A DNA stretch of 64,000 nt from a virus. The stretch's first letter is position 1. Every line of letters begins with the position of its first letter. This document shows, piece by piece, positions 6,018 to 60,191 of this stretch. Both the position numbers and the translations under genes were made by a program. Where the stretch lies: positions 4,329-68,328 of the IMG/VR virus record IMGVR_UViG_3300033150_000870; one strand, 5' to 3'. Below the pieces are notes generated by a model. It searched no databases. It was not told the DNA's origin and saw only the letters and a program-made list of their open reading frames with translations.

Positions 6018-7292
6018 ATGCCCGAAAAACTACAAAGATGCTATGAAAAAGTTTTGGCGCAGATGCTTGACAGAGGAATGGATAGAGAAAAAGCCGATCA
6101 AGCTGCGCGAGCAATTTGTGTCAAATCAACCGGCTTAAAATGGCAGAGACATACATCACTTACACAAGTTCCAATTCAAGAAGTCGGAATTTCAAAGGAA
6201 GAAGAAAATAGATATGTATATTTAGCTGGCATTGCATTGAGAGAAACAGTATCCCGGAATCATATCAATTATAGGAAGGAAGTGCTGAAAAAAGGCTATC
6301 ATACCCTTGAAGGTAAAAAAGTGTTTCCTAATCATAACTATGACCAAGTTCCCGTAGGAAAAGTCGTATATTCCGGGTATCGTGAATCCGAAGATGGAAA
6401 GGGAGAAATAGAATTTGTGATGGAAATTGATAGTAATATAGACCAAAAGATCGTAAATGCCATTGAATCGGGGTACATTAATTCAGTATCTATCGGCGCC
6501 GATGGTGGAGAGCTGATTTGTGATATATGTAATCGAAGGCTCGCAGAGTGTAAGCATATACCCGGCAAGAAATATATAATTGAAGGAGAGGAAGTAATAG
6601 CAACTGCGTCCCCTACTAAACTCGAATTCAAGGAGTTATCCCTCGTGTATTTTATGCCGGGAATCGAGGGAGCAACCATATTTCAAGCTGATGAATATAT
6701 ACCTCAATTAAAAGAAATTATAGATAAAAAAATTGTAAAGGGTGATAAAATGTCCGAAAATATTGATATGTTGAAAGGAGAAATAGAAGCCTTAACTAAA
6801 CAAAACCAAGATCTAAAGACCAAATATACGGAAGTATTAGAAAAGTTGAAACAGATGGAAGACATTGAAAAGAAACGACAAGAAGCAGAACGAAAAAAAC
6901 TGATAAACGAAGTAATCAAACTTGAAACCGAATTGTATCCAGAGAAATATCCGGCAGATAACATCCCGGAACGAGCAAAAGAGTATTACGAGAACGACAA
7001 ATACACAACTGACTATCTCGAAGGAATGATATTACACTTAAAAAAAGAGATCGAATCTCGGAAGGAGCTGGAAATGCTAAAAGAAAAAGTATCGCCGAAA
7101 TCCTATACAATACAACCACCTACTAACCAATCCCAATTATCAGAAGAAGAACGAAAAATCAAGGAAATACAAGAGATAAAACGACTTATCGAAAGAAAAC
7201 TAAAGATAAATAAACCACTTGACCCGAAATTTAAAGAATATATGTATATGCATGGACTTTATATAAAGGTAGAAGGTGATAAAGTATGGTAA
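6018..7292 (+). CDS. Prohead protease/scaffold fusion
   Basis: NH..VPVGKV, SVSIG, CDIC..CKHIPGKKY and FKELSLV motifs, followed by a coiled coil; internal GGTGA+ATG at 6750. Confidence 0.85.
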   Translation: MPEKLQRCYEKVLAQMLDRGMDREKADQAARAICVKSTGLKWQRHTSLTQVPIQEVGISKEEENRYVYLAGIALRETVSRNHINYRKEVLKKGYHTLEGKKVFPNHNYDQVPVGKVVYSGYRESEDGKGEIEFVMEIDSNIDQKIVNAIESGYINSVSIGADGGELICDICNRRLAECKHIPGKKYIIEGEEVIATASPTKLEFKELSLVYFMPGIEGATIFQADEYIPQLKEIIDKKIVKGDKMSENIDMLKGEIEALTKQNQDLKTKYTEVLEKLKQMEDIEKKRQEAERKKLINEVIKLETELYPEKYPADNIPERAKEYYENDKYTTDYLEGMILHLKKEIESRKELEMLKEKVSPKSYTIQPPTNQSQLSEEERKIKEIQEIKRLIERKLKINKPLDPKFKEYMYMHGLYIKVEGDKVW

Positions 7293-10561: not shown

Positions 10562-10834
10562 ATGACGGAAATAGATAAAGAAATATTAGAATTAGAACAA
10601 AAGATTGCTGAACTACAAAAAAAGAAAGCAGAATTTAAAAAAGAGATCGAAGAAAAAGCCAAAAAACTATTAGAAAAGGAAAAACAAGAAGAAGCAGAAA
10701 AGAAAAAGAAACTTGAGGAATTGAAAGAACAACTTAAAAAAGAAGAGGAAGAATTCGAGAAAATGCGAGTAGAACAAATTGCACTTGAAAAATCAAATCC
10801 ACATTGGTATCGCATACACGGTAAAAAATCCTAA
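10562..10834 (+). CDS. Charged coiled-coil protein
   Basis: E/K-rich heptads. Confidence 0.6.
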   Translation: MTEIDKEILELEQKIAELQKKKAEFKKEIEEKAKKLLEKEKQEEAEKKKKLEELKEQLKKEEEEFEKMRVEQIALEKSNPHWYRIHGKKS

Positions 10835-10891
10835 TCTTTAATTTCAATCATATTTTTTTCTTTTTTCTATTTTTTCGATACATTTTTATAT

Positions 10892-16232: not shown

Positions 16233-16460
16233 CTATACCTCTTCTTTTTTCTCATTTCCTTTTATCTCCTTATCAACCACATAATATCGTTCCTTCATAT
16301 CCGATGGTATATACACCTTTTTCAGTCCTACTTTTATTAGATACTCCAACATCCGCGAATAACTAAACTTATATTCCTTTGCAAGTTGTTTTATGTATTT
16401 CTTTACCGAAGGATGTAAATATACAGTTGATTTTCCTTTTGTGTATCTAGGGTTGCCCAT
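16233..16460 (-). CDS. Ribbon-helix-helix DNA-binding protein
   Basis: STVYLHPSVKKYIKQLAKE..FSYSRMLEYLI. Confidence 0.7.
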   Translation of the reverse strand: MGNPRYTKGKSTVYLHPSVKKYIKQLAKEYKFSYSRMLEYLIKVGLKKVYIPSDMKERYYVVDKEIKGNEKKEEV

Positions 16461-16959
16461 TTCTTTTCATCACCTCTTTATATCCATAGCATCTTCTATA
16501 ATTTTTAGCCGTATATTCGGCGCAACCAAATCCCGTCAATGAACACCAAAACGGTTTTTTATAAAAGGGGCATATATCATCATTTTTTTCTTCTTCTTTT
16601 GGGGTGTTGTGGTTTTTGCGCCAAACTTTATAAATATTATTCATATCGATTGGAAAACTTAGGCGGTATTTGTTATTTATTTTATATGCATATCGTATAG
16701 TGGGGTATTTACCATATTTGGCATGATATAGAACTATAAAAAACATAAATAAAGTTGGGGATTTGAAATTAATGAACTCCGGCTCGATATTTGTATTACT
16801 CTTTACTCTATCGATAAATTCTAATAAGTCATTAATATAGTCTATGATATTTTCCGGGTCGCCCATATAGACATATCGTGTTTTTATATTCACAATCTCG
16901 TAATCATCTTCCACTTCAAAACTCTCATTCATCGCCAAGTTGATCAGTATCTTCTTCAT
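16447..16959 (-). CDS. Csx15-like CARF-fold protein with C-terminal Cys cluster
   Basis: Start re-called at MKKILINL. FINF...LYHAKYGKYPTIRY...PIDMNNI resembles the Csx15 consensus as I recall it. Confidence 0.45.
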   Translation of the reverse strand: MKKILINLAMNESFEVEDDYEIVNIKTRYVYMGDPENIIDYINDLLEFIDRVKSNTNIEPEFINFKSPTLFMFFIVLYHAKYGKYPTIRYAYKINNKYRLSFPIDMNNIYKVWRKNHNTPKEEEKNDDICPFYKKPFWCSLTGFGCAEYTAKNYRRCYGYKEVMKRNGQP

Positions 16960-17740
16960 TATCTTCATCCTCTTCATAGTCATCTTCTTCATAAACATTT
17001 CTCGGCGCAAGAAAATACTCGATCACCAAATCATCCAAGTCGTAGTTATACTCTGCGGTTATCTGGATGGGGGTATCTGCGCCAAATTTAATATATATCT
17101 CATTTGCATCCGATAGTTCCTTCATAATTTTTAGTATTGATGTTAGTTCGTAGGTGGATGATACGGGTTTTTCAAAATTATTTACCACTAAATCTTCAGT
17201 ATCAATTACAACATCACTCCTATCATTATATCCATAGAAGCTTAGAAAATTTTCATTGGCAGTTAATTGTATTTCGATCATATCTACGCCCTTTAGTTCT
17301 TTCAATATATCCAAAAATTCTTTTTTATTAATTTGTACTTCTACGAGATTTTCTATTGTCTTTTGTTGGATGTAAGTTTGGCATTTTGGTTCTACAAACA
17401 TCGGAATATTATATTTTCGTTTTTTCCATTCAATATTTAATTTATGATCGAGGGTTTCCAATTTTATGACTTCAGATTTCGGGGTTTTGTTTATAATTTG
17501 TTTGAATACCGGTACATCTACTATTACACTCTCAGTTTCTTCGATTTCATATGATATAAATAATTCCTTTTTTAATAGAAATCGTGTCAGAATAGAGTAG
17601 TCGGGAGAAATCACACTAACAAACAACCCATCGTCATTAAAAGTCATCTCGGAAACCCCAGAGAATAACGAAAAACAATTTATTACTTTATTTAAAATAT
17701 ACGATTCAATCTCACACCTCATATTTTTTAACACCTCCAA
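16925..17740 (-). CDS. pcn: PCNA sliding clamp with acidic tail
   Basis: FNDDGL..VISPD, SSTYEL, KFGADTPIQI and YFLAPR motifs. Confidence 0.93.
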   Translation of the reverse strand: MEVLKNMRCEIESYILNKVINCFSLFSGVSEMTFNDDGLFVSVISPDYSILTRFLLKKELFISYEIEETESVIVDVPVFKQIINKTPKSEVIKLETLDHKLNIEWKKRKYNIPMFVEPKCQTYIQQKTIENLVEVQINKKEFLDILKELKGVDMIEIQLTANENFLSFYGYNDRSDVVIDTEDLVVNNFEKPVSSTYELTSILKIMKELSDANEIYIKFGADTPIQITAEYNYDLDDLVIEYFLAPRNVYEEDDYEEDEDNEEDTDQLGDE

Positions 17741-37638: not shown

Positions 37639-38938
37639 ATGAAAAAAATGAATGTAATAATATCGATGATAATACTATTTTGTTGGGGATTAATAAATGA
37701 GTATCTTCATTATACTTACTGGGACTTGAGTTTTTGGATCGAAACCCATTGGAATCCACCTCCAGATTTAATTTGTAGTTTGATGTTATTTGAAATTTCG
37801 ATATACCTTATAGGAGTTATTATAATTTTAGCGGTTATATTCCTATGCTTTTCCGATGAGATTGAGGAAGGCATCAAATATCTCTATACTAAAATCACTA
37901 AAAAGGATGTGAAAAAAGAATGATTGATCTCGAAACACTCTGGTACTATCTCGAACCGTTTGCTATTATGGTCGTGTTTGGGTTCTTTGCAATGCTACTC
38001 GGCGTGATCAAGAATCTTTGGCATCTCGGAAAACTACCAGAAGACCAAAACGGATGGCACTATATCCTTCAAAAAGCCTCTAAATACTTCCAACTCGGCT
38101 TCACCCAATGCTTCGTCACATGGTGCGGGCTCGGTCTGTGGGGCGCAATAGAATTTGTGTCGGCAGAGGTTCTGGTTCCAATCGCATTTCTTTTGTGCGC
38201 CGAAATATTGCCGGCAGAGTTATGGGAGAGGTTATGGCAGTTTTTGAAGCCGTTATGGGAATATTTTAGTGAGGAGAAACGGGCAGAAAGACGCGAGAAG
38301 AAGAAAGAAAGATTGCTAAAACGATTAGAAGCACTAAAAAAGTTGAAAGAAGAAGAGCGGTTGGCAAAAGAGAAGGAAATGAATGACATCGAGAATGAAA
38401 TAAAGAAGATAAGTGAGCAGTAATGCAAGTGGATTTCCAGCTGATAAATTACATTGTGAATTGGATAAGTGTAGCTATTAGTGCGACTACTGTTATTTCA
38501 ATAGTGTGGAAGTATTATGCGGGGTTCAAACGGATATTTAGAATTATATGGAAAATCATTATCTTTTGGAATCGAGAACACCCAAACCGACCATTAAATA
38601 TTTTTGAGACTGAAGATGAGCCTCTCTACGGGAAGTTAATTGCGCAAGGAATGAGATTGATATTTCAGGCGGATTTTGGGAATAAGAAACTTATATATGA
38701 GATGAAGAAGGCGACTGATAAACTGAAATTAGAAATTGACGATACTAAGTTCTATGATAAGAGGTATGTACAGCAAGTAATAAACTATGAACGAAAGCGA
38801 ATGCTCCAAGAACTTAAGTTAAAAAAGTTGGTCAAAAAGCGTTTGAAAGAACTAAAGGAACTAAGAACTGAAGTTGCATCTCTGGATGACGAAATCCGCA
38901 AAATTGAATATAAAATTAAAAAAATCACATCGCCGTAA
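37639..38938 (+). other. Three membrane proteins with coiled-coil or charged tails (37639-37923, 37920-38423, 38423-38938); possible lysis/egress module
   Basis: Hydrophobic segments; holin-like position after the tail genes. Confidence 0.5.
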
Positions 38939-38940
38939 TA

Positions 38941-38948
38941 TTTATAAA
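38941..38948 (+). promoter_or_regulatory. Archaeal TATA box for the Y-RNA-like gene
   Basis: TTTATAAA ends 22 nt before the hairpin start at 38971; a second TTTATATT at 39050 precedes the Ro60 SD. Confidence 0.6.
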
Positions 38949-38970
38949 GGATGCTTTACTTTTTTTATTC

Positions 38971-39049
38971 GTGTTGAGGTGCGTATGGAGTTACTTCGAT
39001 CAGACTAGTTGATAGACTGACACCGAACTTCATACGGATGACCTCACAC
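38971..39049 (+). ncRNA. Putative Y RNA (Ro60-associated structured RNA)
   Basis: The ends pair: GTG/CAC, TGAGGT/ACCTCA, CGTATGGAGTT/AACTTCATACG, with inner TCAG/CTGA and CTA/TAG; directly upstream of Ro60. Confidence 0.7.
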
Positions 39050-39084
39050 TTTATATTTAATATGTCCTTAAAAGAGGTGATGCT

Positions 39085-40739
39085 TTGGTAAGAAAAACAA
39101 AAAATCTTATTAAAAAATGGGGTAATGAATACGAAAAATCTACACATTATAACTACGCGGGAGCACCATCATTTTCACAACCCCTTGAATTAATGGTTCT
39201 CCAAAACTTGATGTGTAATGTCATCGAACCAACCTACTATGTACCCCAAGCCACACTCCTAAATCAAACCCTTGACCACTACTCCAAAATCACTGCGCAA
39301 AAACCAGAAACCCGATCCCAATACATTTCCCAAATTTTCCCCTCTTAACTACTGCTTTTTTTCCCCCTACTAACGGGCTGGATTTGTTTGCGCAGATGAT
39401 TGTTTATGCACGGGAAAAGGGTTATATGCGACTACAACCAATCATTGGAACGGTATTTCTTTCCACCCTCGATGATTACAGTTTATTCAAAAGAGTATTT
39501 ATGAGAGTTATGAAGACCCCCAACGATGTTATCGACTTCATTAATATCTGTAGAAACGGGAATATACGAAAAGGATTGGGGCGCAAGATAAAAAGAGTTA
39601 TCAACGAGTGGCTTTATAAAAATATTAACGAGTATTGGGCACTTAAATACAAAAATCAACTCCGAATCATTATAAGACTATGTCATCCCAATTTCAGTAA
39701 AATCTCAATATACTCCACATTGATTACGGATTGGATTATGGACTTTCAATATCCACAAAAACTCGATTATCTTGATGTTGCAACTGATATGCTTGAATCT
39801 CACTGTCCGCAAATATCCGCATACATCGATATGATCTCAGCTACTTCGGCGCAACAAATTCTGAATGCAATCAAAGAAGGAAGACTACCATACGAAATAG
39901 TCACGGGAGCAATAAAACCTGAAGCTGACGGTTGGAAGGAGTTAATGAAGCAGATGCCATATTTTGCTCTTTTGCGCCATTTAGTTACCTTTTATCGGAA
40001 TGGATTATTTGATGATAAGGAAGTAGTAGATTACATTTATAAAAGATTAATAGACAAGAAAGCCGTAAAAACTGCAATGATATTACCATTCAGATTTCTT
40101 GAGCCGATGAAACGAATAATAGATCGAAAAATACAGAAAGGATTAGAAAAAGCATTTGATAATTCATTTGATAACTTAGAGCCAATAGAAGGAGAAATCG
40201 TGATTGCAACTGATATGAGTGGTTCAATGGATAGTCCAATCAGTAGAAAGTCAAGTATAAAATTCTGTGATATTGCGGGGATATTAACTGCGGGTATATA
40301 TTGGAAGAATAAAGATCATTGTCGGGTTTTACCATTTAACAGTCATGTATTAGAATTTAGTCCAAGATCATTCAAAAGAGCAATTGACATAGCACAATGG
40401 TTCCACTACCCGGAGAATGGCACAAATTTATCTGCGCCGATAGAGTTTATGGAGATTAACAAGATTAAGGCGGATGTATTCATAGGAATCACGGACAATG
40501 AAGAATGGATGGGTACTGGTGTGATGAATGCATTGAAAAGCTATAGGATGAACATAAACCCGAATATGCATGCTTTTTTGATCCGAATTGATCCCTATGT
40601 CGAGGATGTGGCATTAAATCTTGATGACCCGTTGAATCATATTATTAGCGGTTGGAGTGACAATATCTTAGGATTCATCAATATAATATTAAAAGGAGAA
40701 GACTTAATTTCTAAGATACAAGAATATTTCCCCCTCTAA
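39085..40739 (+). CDS. Ro60/TROVE-vWA RNA-binding protein, spliced: join(39085..39309,39384..40739), 526 aa
   Basis: NYAGAPSF, YAREKGYMR, RKGLGRKIKR, MPYFALLRHL, ILPFRF, vWA DMSGSM, GTNLSAP and ITDNE; the two ORFs join in frame as KPE|LFAQ. Confidence 0.88.
39310..39383 (+). other. 74-nt archaeal bulge-helix-bulge intron in the Ro60 mRNA
   Basis: Exon helix CTGCGCAAAAA/TGTTTGCGCAG, central helix CCAG/CTGG, bulges AAA and ATT, intron helix CCCG/CGGG; canonical cleavage restores the frame. Confidence 0.85.
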
Positions 40740-40796
40740 TTTTTTTCAAATTTACTATTTTTATCGGCATCAGAAATATTTTTTTATATCTATTTT

Positions 40797-41234
40797 TTGT
40801 ATAATATTATGGTGACAAATATGGATGAAGACATTGATTTAGAAACCCTTGAGAAAGAAGTAAGACTTTTAGAACGCCAAAAAAAAGAGCTGGAGCAGGC
40901 AGTAAAAGAAAAGTCTTCGGCGCCGATAATAGAGTTCGAGAACAAGATCATAGATCGGGGCATTTCAACATTAAAAAAGATTGCATCGGGGATGACGGTT
41001 GTTGGTATATATGCGATGATAATAGCTGGTGGTGCATTGGCAATAGATACTGCATTGGAATATTTTTTGCCACAGACCGCCGATCCGAGTTATCACTGGT
41101 GGGATGTTATAATGTCATTTCCGTTTTTTACACAGATATTTTTGTGGATGTTATTGGCGGGAGTTTCATTCGTAGTGATAGCGTTTTTGATGTGGTCTGC
41201 TAATAAAATCTATAGGAAGTTGCTGGGGAAATGA
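40797..41234 (+). CDS. Coiled-coil plus two-TM membrane protein
   Basis: Two hydrophobic segments. Confidence 0.65.
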   Translation: MYNIMVTNMDEDIDLETLEKEVRLLERQKKELEQAVKEKSSAPIIEFENKIIDRGISTLKKIASGMTVVGIYAMIIAGGALAIDTALEYFLPQTADPSYHWWDVIMSFPFFTQIFLWMLLAGVSFVVIAFLMWSANKIYRKLLGK

Positions 41235-41434
41235 GGCAAATAGATTCAAAAAAAAGATATACCTTGTATGATGATCAAAATGCATTAATAGAGTTCATCT
41301 CGATAAAATTAAATAAAAAGCCAATCGAACTAGTAAGAGAGATCGTAGATCAATATTTGAAAGCTCATTCTCGATATTTTGTCAAGGGATTTTGGAAGCG
41401 TCGAGAACAGAGAAATGCATATAATACCGCATAA
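41231..41434 (+). CDS. RHH-like regulator
   Basis: RYTL...ELVREIVDQYL. Confidence 0.5.
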   Translation: MRQIDSKKRYTLYDDQNALIEFISIKLNKKPIELVREIVDQYLKAHSRYFVKGFWKRREQRNAYNTA

Positions 41435-53017: not shown

Positions 53018-55908
53018 ATGGAGGTAATAATTTTGAATGAATATAAAGATAAAATAATAGATATGGAAACCACATTTAAGAAAGCAGATAAACTTGCTAA
53101 CGAACTTGCAAATGTATGTGATGGAAAACAAAGGCGTGTAATATTGATTGCTTGTAGGTTGCTATTAGTAAAAGTAATCCTCAATATGTTACATGAACTT
53201 GATGACGAAAATGATAAAAAAGAAATATTATTAACAGAGATTGGCGCAAGTATAAATGTGCTTACGAATACTATTATTGAAAACGGGATAAAAATAAACG
53301 ATGAAGAGATAATAAAAGAAGTGAGGGATGCAATACGGTTCGCAAGAAATACACCACGATAATATTACCAAAAAAGAAATATAATGAAATCAAAAAGATA
53401 ATTACTAACTTCTATCCCACAGATAATAATACACAAAAAGTAATCTCTAATCTCAGTATGCATAAAATACTATTCTATACTCTCAAGTTTGCACATCAAA
53501 ATAAATTTACCTTTAAAACATTCTTAATTAATGAGGTGATGAATAATGGCTCGTAAGCCTTCGACAAATACTCAATTAGCAAGAAAGGAAAATGCAATAC
53601 AAAACATCCTTGCAAAAATAACAAATAAAGAACCGCTCACCCCAGAAGAATCTCAGTTGATCGCAGGAGCATATGTGTTCTATAATGTCAATTTGAATAA
53701 GATTTCTGCGCAGGTAAAAAAGGTGAAGGATGCGATCAAATATTCAATGGAGAATAATAATATTACCCAGCTTGCGACGAATGATCCATTAATATTCCTT
53801 GAGCTGACAAGACCCACTGTTTCAGTGCCCGACACGAAATTACTTGTTGAAGTATTATCTCCCGAACAGCTTGCAGAAGTGATAAAAACAATAGATAGGA
53901 ATGCTCTCAAAAAATATGTCGATCCGAATACCTATGAGAAAATTATGAAAAAAGAACCCGCATCATTCACAAAGCTTGAAATTAAAATTCGTGAAAATGA
54001 AAAAGTAAAATCATTGACATCAAAACAATACGACAAAATTACTGCTAAGAAGATGTTAATGCTGGAGTGATACTATGTTATATGTTAATTGTCCAAAATG
54101 CAAAAATACCAAAATTGTCGAGAATGAAACTGATATTATAGTATGTGATATATGCGGACATCAATTCATATTAAGTGAGTGTTATGAAAATAATAGAGGT
54201 GATTAAATGACTAAAATAAAGAAAATAATTGTTGAATATGAAGATGGCGCAAAAATCAAATACGCCACTCTCCACGATCTCATTACAGATTTTTTTGGAG
54301 AGATTTGCGAGGATATTTGTGAAGATTGTGACTTAAAGTTTGCGGAGGCAATGTCAATTGAACGAATTTGAAATACCAAAAATTAAAATGTCTCGTGAAG
54401 AACTTAAACAAATATTACTAAAATACTTCATTGATGGCGTGGAAATAACTTCAACAGACCCTAGATTATGCTTGAAGGCAAGGGTACGAGGCTATCAATT
54501 TCGATTATGTTTCGGGTGTGTGCCGTTCTTTCGTAATAACTGTTTAAATCCACATATTACAATGGATCGATTACTTGCTATCTATAACTTTTTCACTCTA
54601 ATCAGATATATCACAAACCCCGATATTGCATTGAAACCTAACGGCCCAGATAGAATCAAAATGCAAGCACGAATATTCAAACGAAGCTACAAGGCGATGT
54701 TAATTTGAATGACGATAAAATTAAAGAAACCTTAAAAAATGACCTTGAAATTGCAAAAGACATTCTCACTAAGATACAGCCCTACATTGAAAATATGACT
54801 CCCCACCAAATATTATCTCTTGCGCAGTATCTCAATGTTATCGGACTGAGTCAAGTAAGCAACCATATTAATTTAAAAGACAAAAATGAAAAAAGAAACT
54901 TCATTAATATTGCTTTCAAACTTGTTATTGATCCCTTACAGTTCATCTTCTTTAAAAATAATATAAAATGTGATATAAATTTGAAAATACAAAATGAAAA
55001 TAAAAATGAAAATTATATAATATAAGGTGGTGATAATTTATGGAAGAAATATTTGAACAAATAGGAATAACTATTGAAGAAGTACAACGAGTATTTGCAG
55101 ATGCCGATAAAATAATAGAACAACTGAAAAAAATGCTACAAGGTAAGCCACTCATAACATCATTACTCGTCGGAAATTTCTTGTTATCACTAACAGTAAA
55201 AAGATTGGCGCAAAAATTTGGACTTGAAACCCACGAAAAAATAAAATCATTTGCCGATATGACGGGGAGCTTATTACTTGCGCCCCTTGAGGAGGCATTT
55301 ATGGAATTTAATAAAGAATATGATGTTGATGTAGTAGTTAAAAAAAGGAAGTGATATAATGGATGAATATAATATAGATTTAACAGAGCTACTTAAAGAG
55401 TTAGGTGCATCTTCAAAACAAATTAAAAAAATACTTTCTGATGTCGATGAAATACTAAAAAAGATTGATCCTATTGTTGATAAAAAAAATATTTTAACCG
55501 TAATTTTCGTGAATGCCTATCTCTCCTTAGGAATCATCGAGAATATGATGGAAAAACTAAAACCAAGTACTCCAAAAGAAATAAACTATTTCATAGCGCT
55601 AATGACACATATACTATTAACTCCCCTCCAAACTATACTAGCTGATTTAGGATTCAATTCACATATAATAGTGGAAGACAATGATTTCAAGAAAAATGAG
55701 AAAAAAACGAAAAAGCACAATTACATTACCTAAAGAGGCATTAAAAGAAATTCACAACCTTCGATCAACTATCTTCAAAGACGAAAAAGAACTCCAAGCA
55801 ATTATAAACGCTATGCCTATATGGAAATTTTGTGCAATCGCAGTTCTTTTTGCGCACCACAACTCTTTTTCTTTTAAGAAGTTTTTCGAGGAAGTGATGA
55901 ATAAATGA
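53018..55908 (+). other. Small-gene module: helical paralogues (53018-53362, 54705-55025, 55040-55354, 55359-55733), RHH-like paralogues (53335-53556, 55681-55908), 53546-54070, zinc ribbon 54075-54206, 54340-54708
   Basis: Co-oriented ORFs with SDs; mutual similarity seen by eye. Confidence 0.65.
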
Positions 55909-56765
55909 ATGGGTATTGTATATTTCATCGTTCTCGTAAGTATAAGACTGATACATGCGATATTTACACACCACACTCAATATATACCAGTAATACGGGA
56001 ACTTGCGAGTCTTGTGAATACTTCGTTAAACCCAGTAATATTATCTATGCAGTTGATAGCCCACCAAAAGACACACTCATATATGATGAAGCGATGGTTT
56101 CTCGTTTCCTCTCCACAGTATTACCCCCTCTCGAAAAATCGGAACTTATTGTCATCCAGCTCATAGCACGCCGAAAATATTCATCTCTTGTCGAGAAAAG
56201 CAATATTGTTTGCGCCAAAGATTATATTCACCACAAATCCGATCCTATCACGAAGATTAAGAGAATGGCGCGATGCAATGAACTATATATTGCCTATGAT
56301 AGTGGTCAGTATCTTCCTATGTCAGCATTCGGGCTGTATATCAACTTGAATCCAAAGGATGGGCTACGAGGATATTTCACATTCTCCGCAGATGCCAATA
56401 AAAGAATAACTCAATATATTAATACCGAAAATCCCGAACATAGACCCAGCTTTTCTAACATTTTCAGTCTTCTATTCTCCGCAGTCACCCGCAGTAACTC
56501 CCGCAAACTCTATACCCTCGTCGATATTGACAAAAAAGATGAAGAACTGCTAATCAAAATCGTGGAGCTTATCGGCGCCGAACATATTATATGGGTGACC
56601 GAAACACACGGCGGGTTTCATATGATTGTGAAGAAAAACAAGGAATCATCAGCACGAGTCTATCAGATAAAGAACGATGTGATCCATATACATTCCGAGC
56701 CACTCACAGTCATACCAGGTACGGTGCAAGGCGGGTTTATGGCTCGCGAGGTGGTGTTTGTGTGA
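55905..56765 (+). CDS. Second AEP-superfamily-like protein
   Basis: LVDID and ETHGGFH resemble AEP motifs I and II. Confidence 0.5.
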   Translation: MNGYCIFHRSRKYKTDTCDIYTPHSIYTSNTGTCESCEYFVKPSNIIYAVDSPPKDTLIYDEAMVSRFLSTVLPPLEKSELIVIQLIARRKYSSLVEKSNIVCAKDYIHHKSDPITKIKRMARCNELYIAYDSGQYLPMSAFGLYINLNPKDGLRGYFTFSADANKRITQYINTENPEHRPSFSNIFSLLFSAVTRSNSRKLYTLVDIDKKDEELLIKIVELIGAEHIIWVTETHGGFHMIVKKNKESSARVYQIKNDVIHIHSEPLTVIPGTVQGGFMAREVVFV

Positions 56766-57301
56766 ATAAAATTAAAGAATTAAAGGAATTACATATAAAG
56801 ATAAATAAAATATTAGAAGAAATGGAAAAAATAACGGTGGAAAAGGGAATTAGATTTCTAAACGAATTAGATGAATCAGAAAAAAAGAGAGTAGATGAAC
56901 TAACAAAAGAACTAGAAATATTAATTAAAAGAATGGAACAAGAAAAAAAGAAAATTGAACAGAAAAAAGAATATCTCAATTTTAAATATCATTGGCTAAT
57001 GGTGTTATCTGGCGTCATACCTCTATTAATAATTGCTTGTATATTTGAACCGTTTTCTTATTCAAACTATTTAATGGTAATCGCTACAGTTGTAATAGTC
57101 ATAGTTATAATAGTTTGGCTATTTATGATGTGTATTATTGAGGGAGAATTACAAATGAAACTTGATTATCTTGAAAAAACGAAAACATTAACAACATCTA
57201 CTTATAATTATATTTTAATGGCATTTAAAAATGGAATCGCTATAAGAAGATGCGAAACGATAGATATGGCTATTATTATGATGGTGTTAAAAAATTCGTA
57301 A
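56762..57301 (+). CDS. Coiled-coil plus two-TM membrane protein (start re-called)
   Basis: GAGGTG SD, then a GTG overlapping the previous stop. Confidence 0.6.
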   Translation: MNKIKELKELHIKINKILEEMEKITVEKGIRFLNELDESEKKRVDELTKELEILIKRMEQEKKKIEQKKEYLNFKYHWLMVLSGVIPLLIIACIFEPFSYSNYLMVIATVVIVIVIIVWLFMMCIIEGELQMKLDYLEKTKTLTTSTYNYILMAFKNGIAIRRCETIDMAIIMMVLKNS

Positions 57302-58652: not shown

Positions 58653-59459
58653 ATGACCAAAATTATATTAGTAATTCCCAAAAAGGCGTTTAATTTTCTT
58701 TATGACTTACTTTATGCAGTAGATACCGAGTTCGTACTGTTGTTTTCAGCATATAGGCGTTCAAAAAGCAAACAAAAGATCATTATCGAGATTGAAGACA
58801 TCTATTATTTGAAACAAACAAATACACGAACAAGCACTGAAATAGATGAGCGAGAAATGGCAACATTCATAGAGAATCACAAGGAATTATTCACAAATTA
58901 CGACAAAATAATGTATAATGAGAAAATAATCGGTTGGATTCATTCACACAATACAATGGGAGCATTTTTTTCATCAATCGATAAAGCTATGAATAATCTA
59001 ATAGCTGGATTTGCGGGATTCTCGGTAGGACTAGTAATTTCACGAACTAAAGATCAAAAACTCGAATATTACATTGAATATACTGAAGATGGCATAAAAC
59101 AGACTGACTACGAATTAATACAAAACAATATGTATAGACCTAACACTAATTACCTAAAATATATAAAAGAAAAAGAAAAAATCATAAAAGAACTGAACGA
59201 ATTAAGCGATATTGATGATTTTGAGTATCCATATCCGTATAACTATGAAAAAACAAAAACAAACAAACTGGATGTAGAAACAATAAAAACGATATTATAT
59301 TCTTATGACGAACAAGAAGTATTAGAAGCAATACATAAATATCTCAACGAAACATACCCAACACCAGACAATTATATGAAATTACAAGAAATTATAGATG
59401 ATCTGTGGGATTTACTCAATGAATTTAGCGAGTTATCAAACTTTTACGGGTGGTATTAA
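58653..59459 (+). CDS. JAB/MPN+ metallo-isopeptidase
   Basis: DTE...GWIHSHNTMGAFFSSID. Confidence 0.9.
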   Translation: MTKIILVIPKKAFNFLYDLLYAVDTEFVLLFSAYRRSKSKQKIIIEIEDIYYLKQTNTRTSTEIDEREMATFIENHKELFTNYDKIMYNEKIIGWIHSHNTMGAFFSSIDKAMNNLIAGFAGFSVGLVISRTKDQKLEYYIEYTEDGIKQTDYELIQNNMYRPNTNYLKYIKEKEKIIKELNELSDIDDFEYPYPYNYEKTKTNKLDVETIKTILYSYDEQEVLEAIHKYLNETYPTPDNYMKLQEIIDDLWDLLNEFSELSNFYGWY

Positions 59460-59462
59460 ATT

Positions 59463-60191
59463 ATGCCTCGATATGAAGGATTCTTTAAATATTCTACGGA
59501 AAGACAGCGAATTGCATTAATCGGATGTGGGAGTCTTGGCTCATATACAGCGTTATTTCTATCAAAATGTGAATTTCCATTATATCTCATTGATGGTGAC
59601 ATTGTAAAGTTCGGTAATTTCAATGTTCAATATTACGACATTCGCGACCGATACGAACTCAAAATAACACGGTTGGAACATAAAATCATTCATAACTATT
59701 GTTTCCGAGATATTGACGATCCAGTAATTACAAGTCCTTATTTCATTCAAGCACATTCTAATCACCCGAAAATCATTCAAAACTTCAAAAACATCAACAT
59801 ATTCATTATAACTACTGATTCCATTCAAGCCAGAAGGAACACATTCAAACTCATTAAAGAAACTAATCCAAACTACACGATAATAATAGATGCTCGATCT
59901 GGAGGCGCAAAATACGAAATATTTACCATTATTCCCGAAACGACAATTGAAAATACATGGAAATACTCACTATCGGGTAAATTTAACGATGAATTTCGGT
60001 GTGGATTCAAGGAACTTCCGTTTGGGTCAGCTTATTGTGCGACATTGATTTGCAGAACCCTTATGAACTATCTTTACTACGATAAGTTTCAATTCTACCA
60101 ATCCTATGACTTTTTAAACGATATTTCAATGAAAATGACCGAAAAAGAATATGTCAAATTTGAACAGCAATTGAGAGAGGCGCAAAAATGA
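59463..60191 (+). CDS. ThiF/E1-like activating enzyme
   Basis: IGCGSLGS, IDGDIV..GN..VQ, TTDSIQAR, IDARSG and RCG. Confidence 0.9.
   Translation: MPRYEGFFKYSTERQRIALIGCGSLGSYTALFLSKCEFPLYLIDGDIVKFGNFNVQYYDIRDRYELKITRLEHKIIHNYCFRDIDDPVITSPYFIQAHSNHPKIIQNFKNINIFIITTDSIQARRNTFKLIKETNPNYTIIIDARSGGAKYEIFTIIPETTIENTWKYSLSGKFNDEFRCGFKELPFGSAYCATLICRTLMNYLYYDKFQFYQSYDFLNDISMKMTEKEYVKFEQQLREAQK

Follow-up and report, generated by a model that had tools for sequence, protein, structure and literature searches.

The Ro60 (TROVE) gene of a tailed virus in the IMG/VR record IMGVR_UViG_3300033150_000870 appears to be interrupted by a genuine archaeal bulge-helix-bulge (BHB) intron, that is, an intron of the tRNA type. 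Judged from the sequence, we give this reading, for a virus that most likely infects an Asgard archaeon, a probability of roughly 0.8. The analysed window is a stretch of 64,000 nt, bases 4329-68328 of the 68,328-bp record; unless stated otherwise, positions are those of the window. BHB introns are the characteristic protein-dependent introns of archaea and occur almost exclusively in genes for tRNA and rRNA. Among mRNAs the textbook case is cbf5 in Crenarchaeota.

The gene is seen in the window as two open reading frames (ORFs), 39085..39348 and 39384..40739, which lie in different frames. The first, if left unspliced, encodes 87 aa and ends at the stop codon 39346-39348; the product of its exonic part (exon 1) has 53% identity to residues 1-85 of a Lokiarchaeota TROVE protein (P0002). 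In the second (exon 2) the Pfam search detected PF05731 (2.3e-12, 47.3 bits, cut-off 23) and PF25045 (1.4e-12, 48.3 bits, cut-off 27.7), and the D-x-S-x-S metal site is conserved in alignments A1-A3. By these sequence features the protein is a member of the family that combines a TROVE domain with a Ro60-type vWA domain. The best matches of exon 2 are TROVE proteins of 528-530 aa under the names Lokiarchaeota and Promethearchaeota, with 42-44% identity. Apart from the insert, the two exons are intact and are homologous along their whole length. The existing gene call is for the C-terminal ORF alone (P0001, 447 aa).

RNA around the gene break is predicted to fold into a complete hBHBh' motif (Table 1). 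The first-pass annotation, made from the letters of this DNA, had placed the motif at 39293-39395; on direct reading the coordinates of the exon helix h, the central helix H, the bulges and the intron helix h' are all exact, and the minimum free energy (MFE) fold agrees. Both 3-nt bulges sit 3' of the central 4-bp helix CCAG/CUGG. The segment 39285-39403 has an MFE of -24.98 kcal/mol, as compared with a mean of -14.14 (standard deviation 2.68) for shuffled sequences (z = -4.04, with 0/200 shuffles as good). Its MFE and centroid structures both contain nine exon-exon pairs, four pairs of H, the unpaired AAA and four pairs of h'; within a 516-nt context the motif is retained in the MFE and centroid folds as well. 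Pair probabilities were computed in three contexts at 25, 37 and 60 C. Over these conditions the outer nine pairs of helix h had probabilities of 0.45-1.0; helix h', with its 4 bp, cleanly closes the 5' bulge.

The archaeal splicing endonuclease EndA cleaves each bulge between its second and third residues (PMC2738675). A cut after the second bulge nucleotide on either side removes 39310-39383, a 74-nt insert that holds the stop 39346-39348 in the frame of exon 1. The remaining sequence is open for 526 aa, free of internal stops, and is joined at KPE/LF, exactly as the first-pass annotation had it. Its further expectation, that homologues would align with no gap at KPE/LF, was borne out. In alignment A1 the N-terminal ORF matches the first ~85 residues of the homologues and the homology ends exactly after ...KPE; the C-terminal ORF resumes at LFAQ..., opposite ...PE-LFAK... 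of the homologues, without a gap. At the DNA level homologous loci are uninterrupted at the junction in 58/58 cases, 6/6 of them viral and 52/52 from metagenomes or genomes. The metagenome and genome loci found numbered 54; L043 and L044 were excluded, as a contig end lets their matches start only from query residue 69, and L020 offers 20 codons upstream only, up to its contig end. Homology puts the break where the BHB rule puts the cut; thus the gene break and the predicted splice points coincide.

The exon helix, to judge from the homologous sequences, is no by-product of the protein sequence. Its two 11-nt arms form 10/11 Watson-Crick pairs in the virus versus 0-6 (median 3) in 45 distinct intronless homologues, a set obtained from 57 examined loci by merging identical pairs of arms. 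The 5' arm encodes a variable segment, while the 3' arm encodes the conserved F-A-Q, which suggests that it is the 5' arm that has been adapted to pair. Codon usage in the arms (GCG makes up 23% of Ala codons and CAG 26.5% of Gln codons) is compatible with adaptation, though not decisive.

A chance origin of the Ro60 motif is excluded. At fixed splice points, and given the base composition of the genome, the chance of a motif with H 4/4, h' 4/4 and h of at least 10/11 is ~6e-10. A strict scan with the same thresholds (Watson-Crick pairs only, spacing 16-500, both strands of the 68,328-bp genome) returned one site genome-wide, the Ro60 motif itself, and none in 8/8 genomes simulated by a first-order Markov model. 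With h relaxed to at least 9/11 there were 2 matches in the virus genome versus 0-1 in the simulations; with h of at least 8/11, still with Watson-Crick pairs only, there were 10 versus 3-8. A loose scan, with G-U pairs allowed and h of at least 7/8, gave 626 matches in the genome versus 398-463 in 10 simulated genomes, and 58 of the 626 leave at least 60 codons open on either side. Such loose BHB scans are uninformative, their counts being at chance level.

Table 1. Coordinates of the Ro60 gene, of the predicted intron with its BHB motif and of the nearby elements (window numbering)
Feature	Position	Strand	Remarks
Exon helix h, 5' strand	39293..39303	+	pairs with 39385-39395, 10/11 Watson-Crick
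Central helix H, 5' strand CCAG (exon)	39304..39307	+	pairs with 39378-39381; probability 0.61-0.98
5' bulge AAA	39308..39310	+	unpaired in MFE fold; predicted cut after 39309
Intron helix h', 5' strand CCCG	39311..39314	+	pairs with 39374-39377; probability 0.53-0.88
Intron helix h', 3' strand CGGG	39374..39377	+	direct reading, MFE fold, pair probabilities
Central helix H, 3' strand CUGG (intron)	39378..39381	+	direct reading, MFE fold, pair probabilities
3' bulge AUU	39382..39384	+	unpaired in MFE fold; predicted cut after 39383
Exon helix h, 3' strand	39385..39395	+	encodes conserved F-A-Q
Predicted BHB intron	39310..39383	+	74 nt, phase 0, pyrimidine-rich, core unstructured
Ro60 exon 1	39085..39309	+	75 codons, TTG start
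Ro60 exon 2	39384..40739	+	451 codons + stop; TROVE + Ro60 vWA domains, DxSxS motif
Shine-Dalgarno-like GAGGTGA	39066..39072	+	12 nt upstream of exon 1 TTG start; read directly
Long imperfect hairpin, tentative Y-RNA-like partner	38971..39049	+	directly upstream of Ro60; z = -2.95

Several points weigh against a BHB intron. The pair A39303-U39385, which flanks the 3' bulge, is predicted to be mostly open (probability 0.02-0.03), and the model draws a 2x5 internal loop in place of a clean 3-nt bulge; in thermodynamic terms the 3' site may be a relaxed BHB that falls short of the strict form. What opens it in the prediction is the one mismatch of helix h, an A·G at the second position counted from the 3' bulge. 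Despite the open pair, the predicted cut sites stay put, since they are counted from the central helix; broad-specificity types of EndA handle relaxed BHB forms (PMC5829648). In addition, the predicted intron stands in a single metagenomic sequence. A look at sequencing runs gave no RNA run and three DNA runs with small shares (0.05-0.07). No intron-bearing relative was found in any collection searched, hence there is neither covariation nor a second assembly to draw on. No close relatives were obtained with the single Ro60 protein as query, whether in viral or in metagenome contigs; viral contigs contained no exact copy of a 40-mer that spans the 5' junction, and blastn against phage records gave no match to the Ro60 gene. 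The exon 1 query found no short proteins of 47-153 aa; its eight representatives at E <= 0.001 are 173-655 aa in length, and 0/8 end at the junction. Finally, the host has been assigned by protein similarity, without a CRISPR spacer or a cultured host. The central claim of the first-pass annotation, a BHB intron that splits a viral Ro60 gene, is supported by every computational test applied: motif geometry, frame, homology, gene-specific exon complementarity and Asgard-virus affinity.

The 74-nt insert has a C content of 35% versus 15% genome-wide; it is 69% pyrimidine, which places it in the top 1.9% of 74-nt windows of the genome. No second copy of it exists in the virus genome and no internal structure is predicted. 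The Rfam search of 38850-39450 at E <= 10 returned chance-level matches only, and no C/D-box motifs were seen by eye in the intron. A transposon with terminal repeats is ruled out, as the outer palindrome arms are homologous Ro60 coding sequence. A self-splicing intron of group I or group II is not supported: there is no Rfam ribozyme match, and the insert is 74 nt long.

The unusual composition of the insert would fit a different role for the same cleavage site. If EndA does act here, its effect could chiefly be RNA processing: release of a 74-nt (circular) RNA with a function of its own, or inactivation of the transcript. The motif is equally strong under such an explanation, and archaeal BHB processing is known to yield circular RNAs (PMC12558985). 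However, the exact restoration of both frame and homology by the predicted cut sites would then be an unexplained coincidence, and for the intron neither a predicted structure nor an Rfam match nor a second copy was found; we consider a role in processing only to be improbable. A disabled gene is, in our estimate, a still poorer candidate. It would mean that the insertion broke Ro60, that the two ORFs are dead or make separate polypeptides (87 aa and ~450 aa) and that the BHB-like fold is incidental. In its favour, gene callers took the C-terminal ORF alone. An incidental fold, though, is hard to reconcile with the small chance of the motif at fixed boundaries (~6e-10), with the scan of simulated genomes, of which 0/8 contain a comparable motif, or with the absence of exon complementarity in 45/45 intronless homologues; moreover, the 526 codons contain no other lesion, and direct reading found no ribosome-binding site before 39384, where exon 2 begins.

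Yet another point counts against the intron: the frame of exon 2 is free of stops from 39276 through the whole insert (to 39383). A -1 ribosomal frameshift near the A-run 39299-39303 into this frame would produce Ro60 with an insertion of ~25 aa, and a run of five A does stand just before the insert. An open exon-2 frame across the insert is, however, expected by chance because the stretch is 69% pyrimidine. There is no canonical X XXY YYZ heptamer, 58/58 homologue loci have no insertion at the junction, and frameshifting leaves the precise BHB geometry unexplained; all this makes it a very improbable explanation. Least credible of all is that an error of assembly or sequencing introduced the 74 nt. 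The record is a metagenome assembly, but an artefact would not give the insert a 3' end complementary to the exon together with bulges placed for exact excision.

Under the BHB intron reading, expression of the gene would proceed as follows. The primary transcript would begin upstream of TTG 39085, and the exon sequence flanking the insert would pair as helix h; four exon nucleotides would pair with the 3' end of the insert (helix H), thereby presenting two 3-nt bulges on opposite strands. Host EndA would cut at 39309/39310 and 39383/39384; the exons would then be joined by the host's RtcB, an RNA ligase of the 3'-phosphate type, and the 74-nt intron would be released, probably as a circle. 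The spliced mRNA would encode the 526-aa Ro60; in an unspliced message, translation from TTG 39085 would stop after 87 aa. Both the cleavage and ligation steps and the enzymes responsible for them are inferred.

The enzymes would have to come from the host. EndA (PF01974) and RtcB (PF01139) are absent from the virus, while control searches for them were positive in archaea; because the virus lacks both, splicing would depend on host enzymes. The RNA ligase family PF09414 is likewise absent from the virus. PF09511 has no match in the virus either, a result that is uninformative since the control search also had no matches. In three Asgard genomes, of Atabeyarchaeia and Freyarchaeia, 92-95% of tRNA genes bear introns (PMC11291895). 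An EndA homologue was reported in 58/60 Asgard genomes, and in 44/60 there are two EndA paralogues consistent with a broad-specificity (alpha-beta)2 enzyme (bioRxiv 10.64898/2026.10.13.758758). By analogy, an Asgard host of this kind would be well equipped to remove the intron. Most simply, the intron would be a tolerated insertion, one that is removed efficiently because the host lineage already handles BHB introns in great number. In our view it is not a switch dedicated to regulation. The gating of Ro60 production proposed in the first-pass annotation is speculative, and a functional checkpoint that couples Ro60 output to the EndA/RtcB-type RNA cleavage and repair activity of the host is doubtful.

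The affinity of the virus itself was assessed from its genes. The IMG/VR record bears direct terminal repeats and has a completeness rating of 100%. Structural genes in the window encode the large terminase, portal, tail sheath and baseplate wedge; other genes encode a family-B DNA polymerase, a KaiC/RadA-like ATPase, an RPA-C-like protein, a DNA methylase and a PD-(D/E)XK nuclease. A search with the terminase at E <= 1e-10 scored two proteins, one of them the window's own. The other, 43% identical, bears the name 'terminase large subunit [Lokiarchaeota virus Ratatoskr Meg22_1012]'. In a comparison with deposited phage records, the widest query cover was that of Methanobacterium virus PhiF1 and the best E-value that of Halogranum tailed virus 1; both matches are weak and both are to archaeal viruses. 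Judged by sequence similarity, the virus is myovirus-like and related to a named Lokiarchaeota virus, and its host is most likely an Asgard (Lokiarchaeia-like) archaeon.

Four virus records (G001-G004) are related to this virus by the terminase large subunit (TerL), and 0/4 contain a TROVE gene. One of them, G001 (L062, L066-L069), is a 66.6-kb virus record with a terminase 43% identical to that of the window; because this TerL relative has no Ro60 gene, Ro60 is an accessory gene within the virus group. No tRNA genes were found in the window, in G001 or in G002, and no Rfam family reached its gathering score across the window.

When the TerL relatives were scanned for BHB-like motifs with h of at least 9/11, G001 had 5 matches, G002 had 1, and G003 and G004 had 0. 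The best of these matches (10/11) was rejected as a BHB intron: it lies on the strand opposite an ORF and shows no folding (z = +0.67). In the virus genome, a BHB-like long-range pairing at 40789-41247 (H 4/4, h' 4/4, h 8/11) brackets the ORF 40797..41234 downstream of Ro60; it is probably due to chance, being one of the 10 matches obtained at a threshold where simulations give 3-8. Many overlapping matches of the loose scan fall into a dense cluster of mutually pairing short segments at 10620-10880, which suggests a repeat-rich, non-coding stretch. Pairs of long ORFs in different frames, with overlaps of 86-175 nt, occur at 55905-57301 (+) and 16447-17740 (-). A Pfam search of overlapping ORF pairs, these two included, gave no sign of a second split gene.

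The hairpin directly upstream of Ro60 is a candidate for a Y-RNA-like partner of the protein. At locus L008 (5-76), where Ro60 has 44% identity, a hairpin of the same architecture lies upstream of the gene, and the two hairpins have a 10-mer in common at the same place. A covariance model built from the viral hairpin alone gave weak matches, with E of 0.17 and 0.21, at L059 2156-2287 and L060 1968-2101; these are upstream of Ro60 and on the same strand in two Bacillota loci. No Rfam family matches the 38971-39049 hairpin. Genes for Y RNAs are typical neighbours of Ro60 genes (PMC4201824). Tentatively, the arrangement suggests an intact module of Ro60 and a Y-like RNA, and such a module argues against a dead gene.

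Several elements near the hairpin and in related loci may be recorded here. TATA-like boxes, read by eye, flank the upstream hairpin: TTTATAAA (38941-38948), ~25-30 nt upstream of the hairpin, and TTTATATT (39051-39058), ~27-34 nt before the start of Ro60. A T-run, also read by eye, follows the preceding gene at 38958-38966. At the viral locus L004 there is a partial tRNA-like match downstream of Ro60 (6678-6734; positions 10-63 of the Rfam tRNA model, 37.1 bits), which is similar to the tRNA-like domain known from YrlA RNAs of bacteria. At L060 the candidate Y-like element is separated from Ro60 by a full tRNA (2495-2577).

Archaeal pre-tRNA introns at position 37/38 show the same order of elements as the Ro60 motif, h-H-bulge-h' followed by h'-H-bulge-h, with 3-nt bulges and a 4-bp H. 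The order seen in Ro60 is what we take to be the canonical layout of a tRNA intron at this position. Two definitions of hBHBh' agree with the tRNA-intron layout (PMC6379350; bioRxiv 10.64898/2026.10.13.758758). Unlike those of pre-tRNA, the Ro60 exons encode protein, so that helix h is made of codons where in tRNA it is the anticodon stem; the Ro60 motif also differs in having a mismatch beside the closing pair of the 3' bulge.

Among protein genes the nearest parallel is cbf5 of Crenarchaeota (Aeropyrum, Sulfolobus, Desulfurococcales), which likewise contains a short BHB or BHB-like intron recognised by EndA (PMC2738675). In cbf5, and by prediction in Ro60, the cut lies between the second and third bulge residues and a functional protein needs removal of the intron. 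The cbf5 genes are cellular and crenarchaeal, their BHBs are often unconventional and their splicing has been shown by cDNA (PMC2738675). In contrast, the Ro60 gene is viral, its host is probably an Asgard archaeon, and its predicted intron has 74 nt and a near-canonical hBHBh'.

The first-pass annotation knew of no BHB intron in a viral mRNA. This statement stands in part: our literature search, which did not cover supplementary annotation tables, found no report of a BHB intron in viral mRNA and no shown case, but putative 12-bp introns in an archaeal virus genome have been proposed (Peng et al., as cited in PMC2738675), for which, according to the same source, splicing was never shown. Like the Ro60 insert, these are short, lie in protein genes of an archaeal virus and have been put forward as introns of archaeal type. 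They keep the frame and may therefore simply be translated (PMC2738675). The Ro60 insert, unlike them, breaks the frame, holds a stop in the frame of exon 1 and carries a full BHB.

Viral genes for Ro60 with TROVE and vWA domains are in themselves common, with 361 phage records holding one. Such genes are found in mycobacteriophages, Streptomyces phages and the Asgard 'Nidhogg' viruses, and the gene is uninterrupted at 6/6 viral loci examined. Ro60 has been reported in Nidhogg viruses in a preprint (10.1101/2021.07.29.454249), whose text does not contain the word 'intron'.

Two other systems bear comparison. The phage group I introns, such as those of T4 td and nrdB, are large self-splicing ribozymes independent of host enzymes. 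Like the Ro60 insert they occupy a protein gene of a prokaryotic virus; unlike them, the insert has 74 nt and no ribozyme fold, and its removal would depend wholly on host proteins. Ire1-mediated splicing of HAC1/XBP1, to which the first-pass annotation had likened the Ro60 case, has in common with the predicted Ro60 splicing a cleavage by protein only, joining by a tRNA ligase and a change of frame in an mRNA. RtcB is capable of both tRNA and HAC1 splicing (PMC6379350, PMC4090602). The HAC1/XBP1 system differs in that a stress-sensor endonuclease cuts paired stem-loops and splicing is regulated, whereas the Ro60 motif is a BHB for a constitutive enzyme.

Further features of the window lie apart from Ro60. 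Its G+C is 28-41%. Genes switch strand at ~20-21 kb; the GC skew of the + strand is negative over 12-20 kb and strongly positive (0.2-0.4) from ~22 kb on. At 58653-60191 adjoining genes carry domains of the JAB/MPN isopeptidase type (PF01398, 3.2e-08) and of the ThiF/E1-like type (PF00899, 4.7e-06, below cut-off). To judge from these domains, the genes may be a virus-borne module for ubiquitin-like modification.

If Ro60 output were after all subject to the doubtful checkpoint, Ro60, perhaps with its Y-like RNA partner, would be made only where the archaeal host or its physiological state is compatible, and the excised pyrimidine-rich circle of 74 nt might act, for example as a ligand or decoy; in wider terms, BHB introns would prove able to colonise protein genes of the Asgard mobilome. 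The BHB intron as such, if real, has wider consequences. A viral protein gene in need of the host tRNA-splicing machinery would be unusual, and it would mean that a virus can tie the expression of one gene entirely to the host's tRNA-splicing enzymes. Gene callers would systematically shorten genes split by BHB introns, as in the present case, where the C-terminal 447 aa only were called. The process of intron gain that fills Asgard tRNA genes would be able to strike protein-coding DNA as well.

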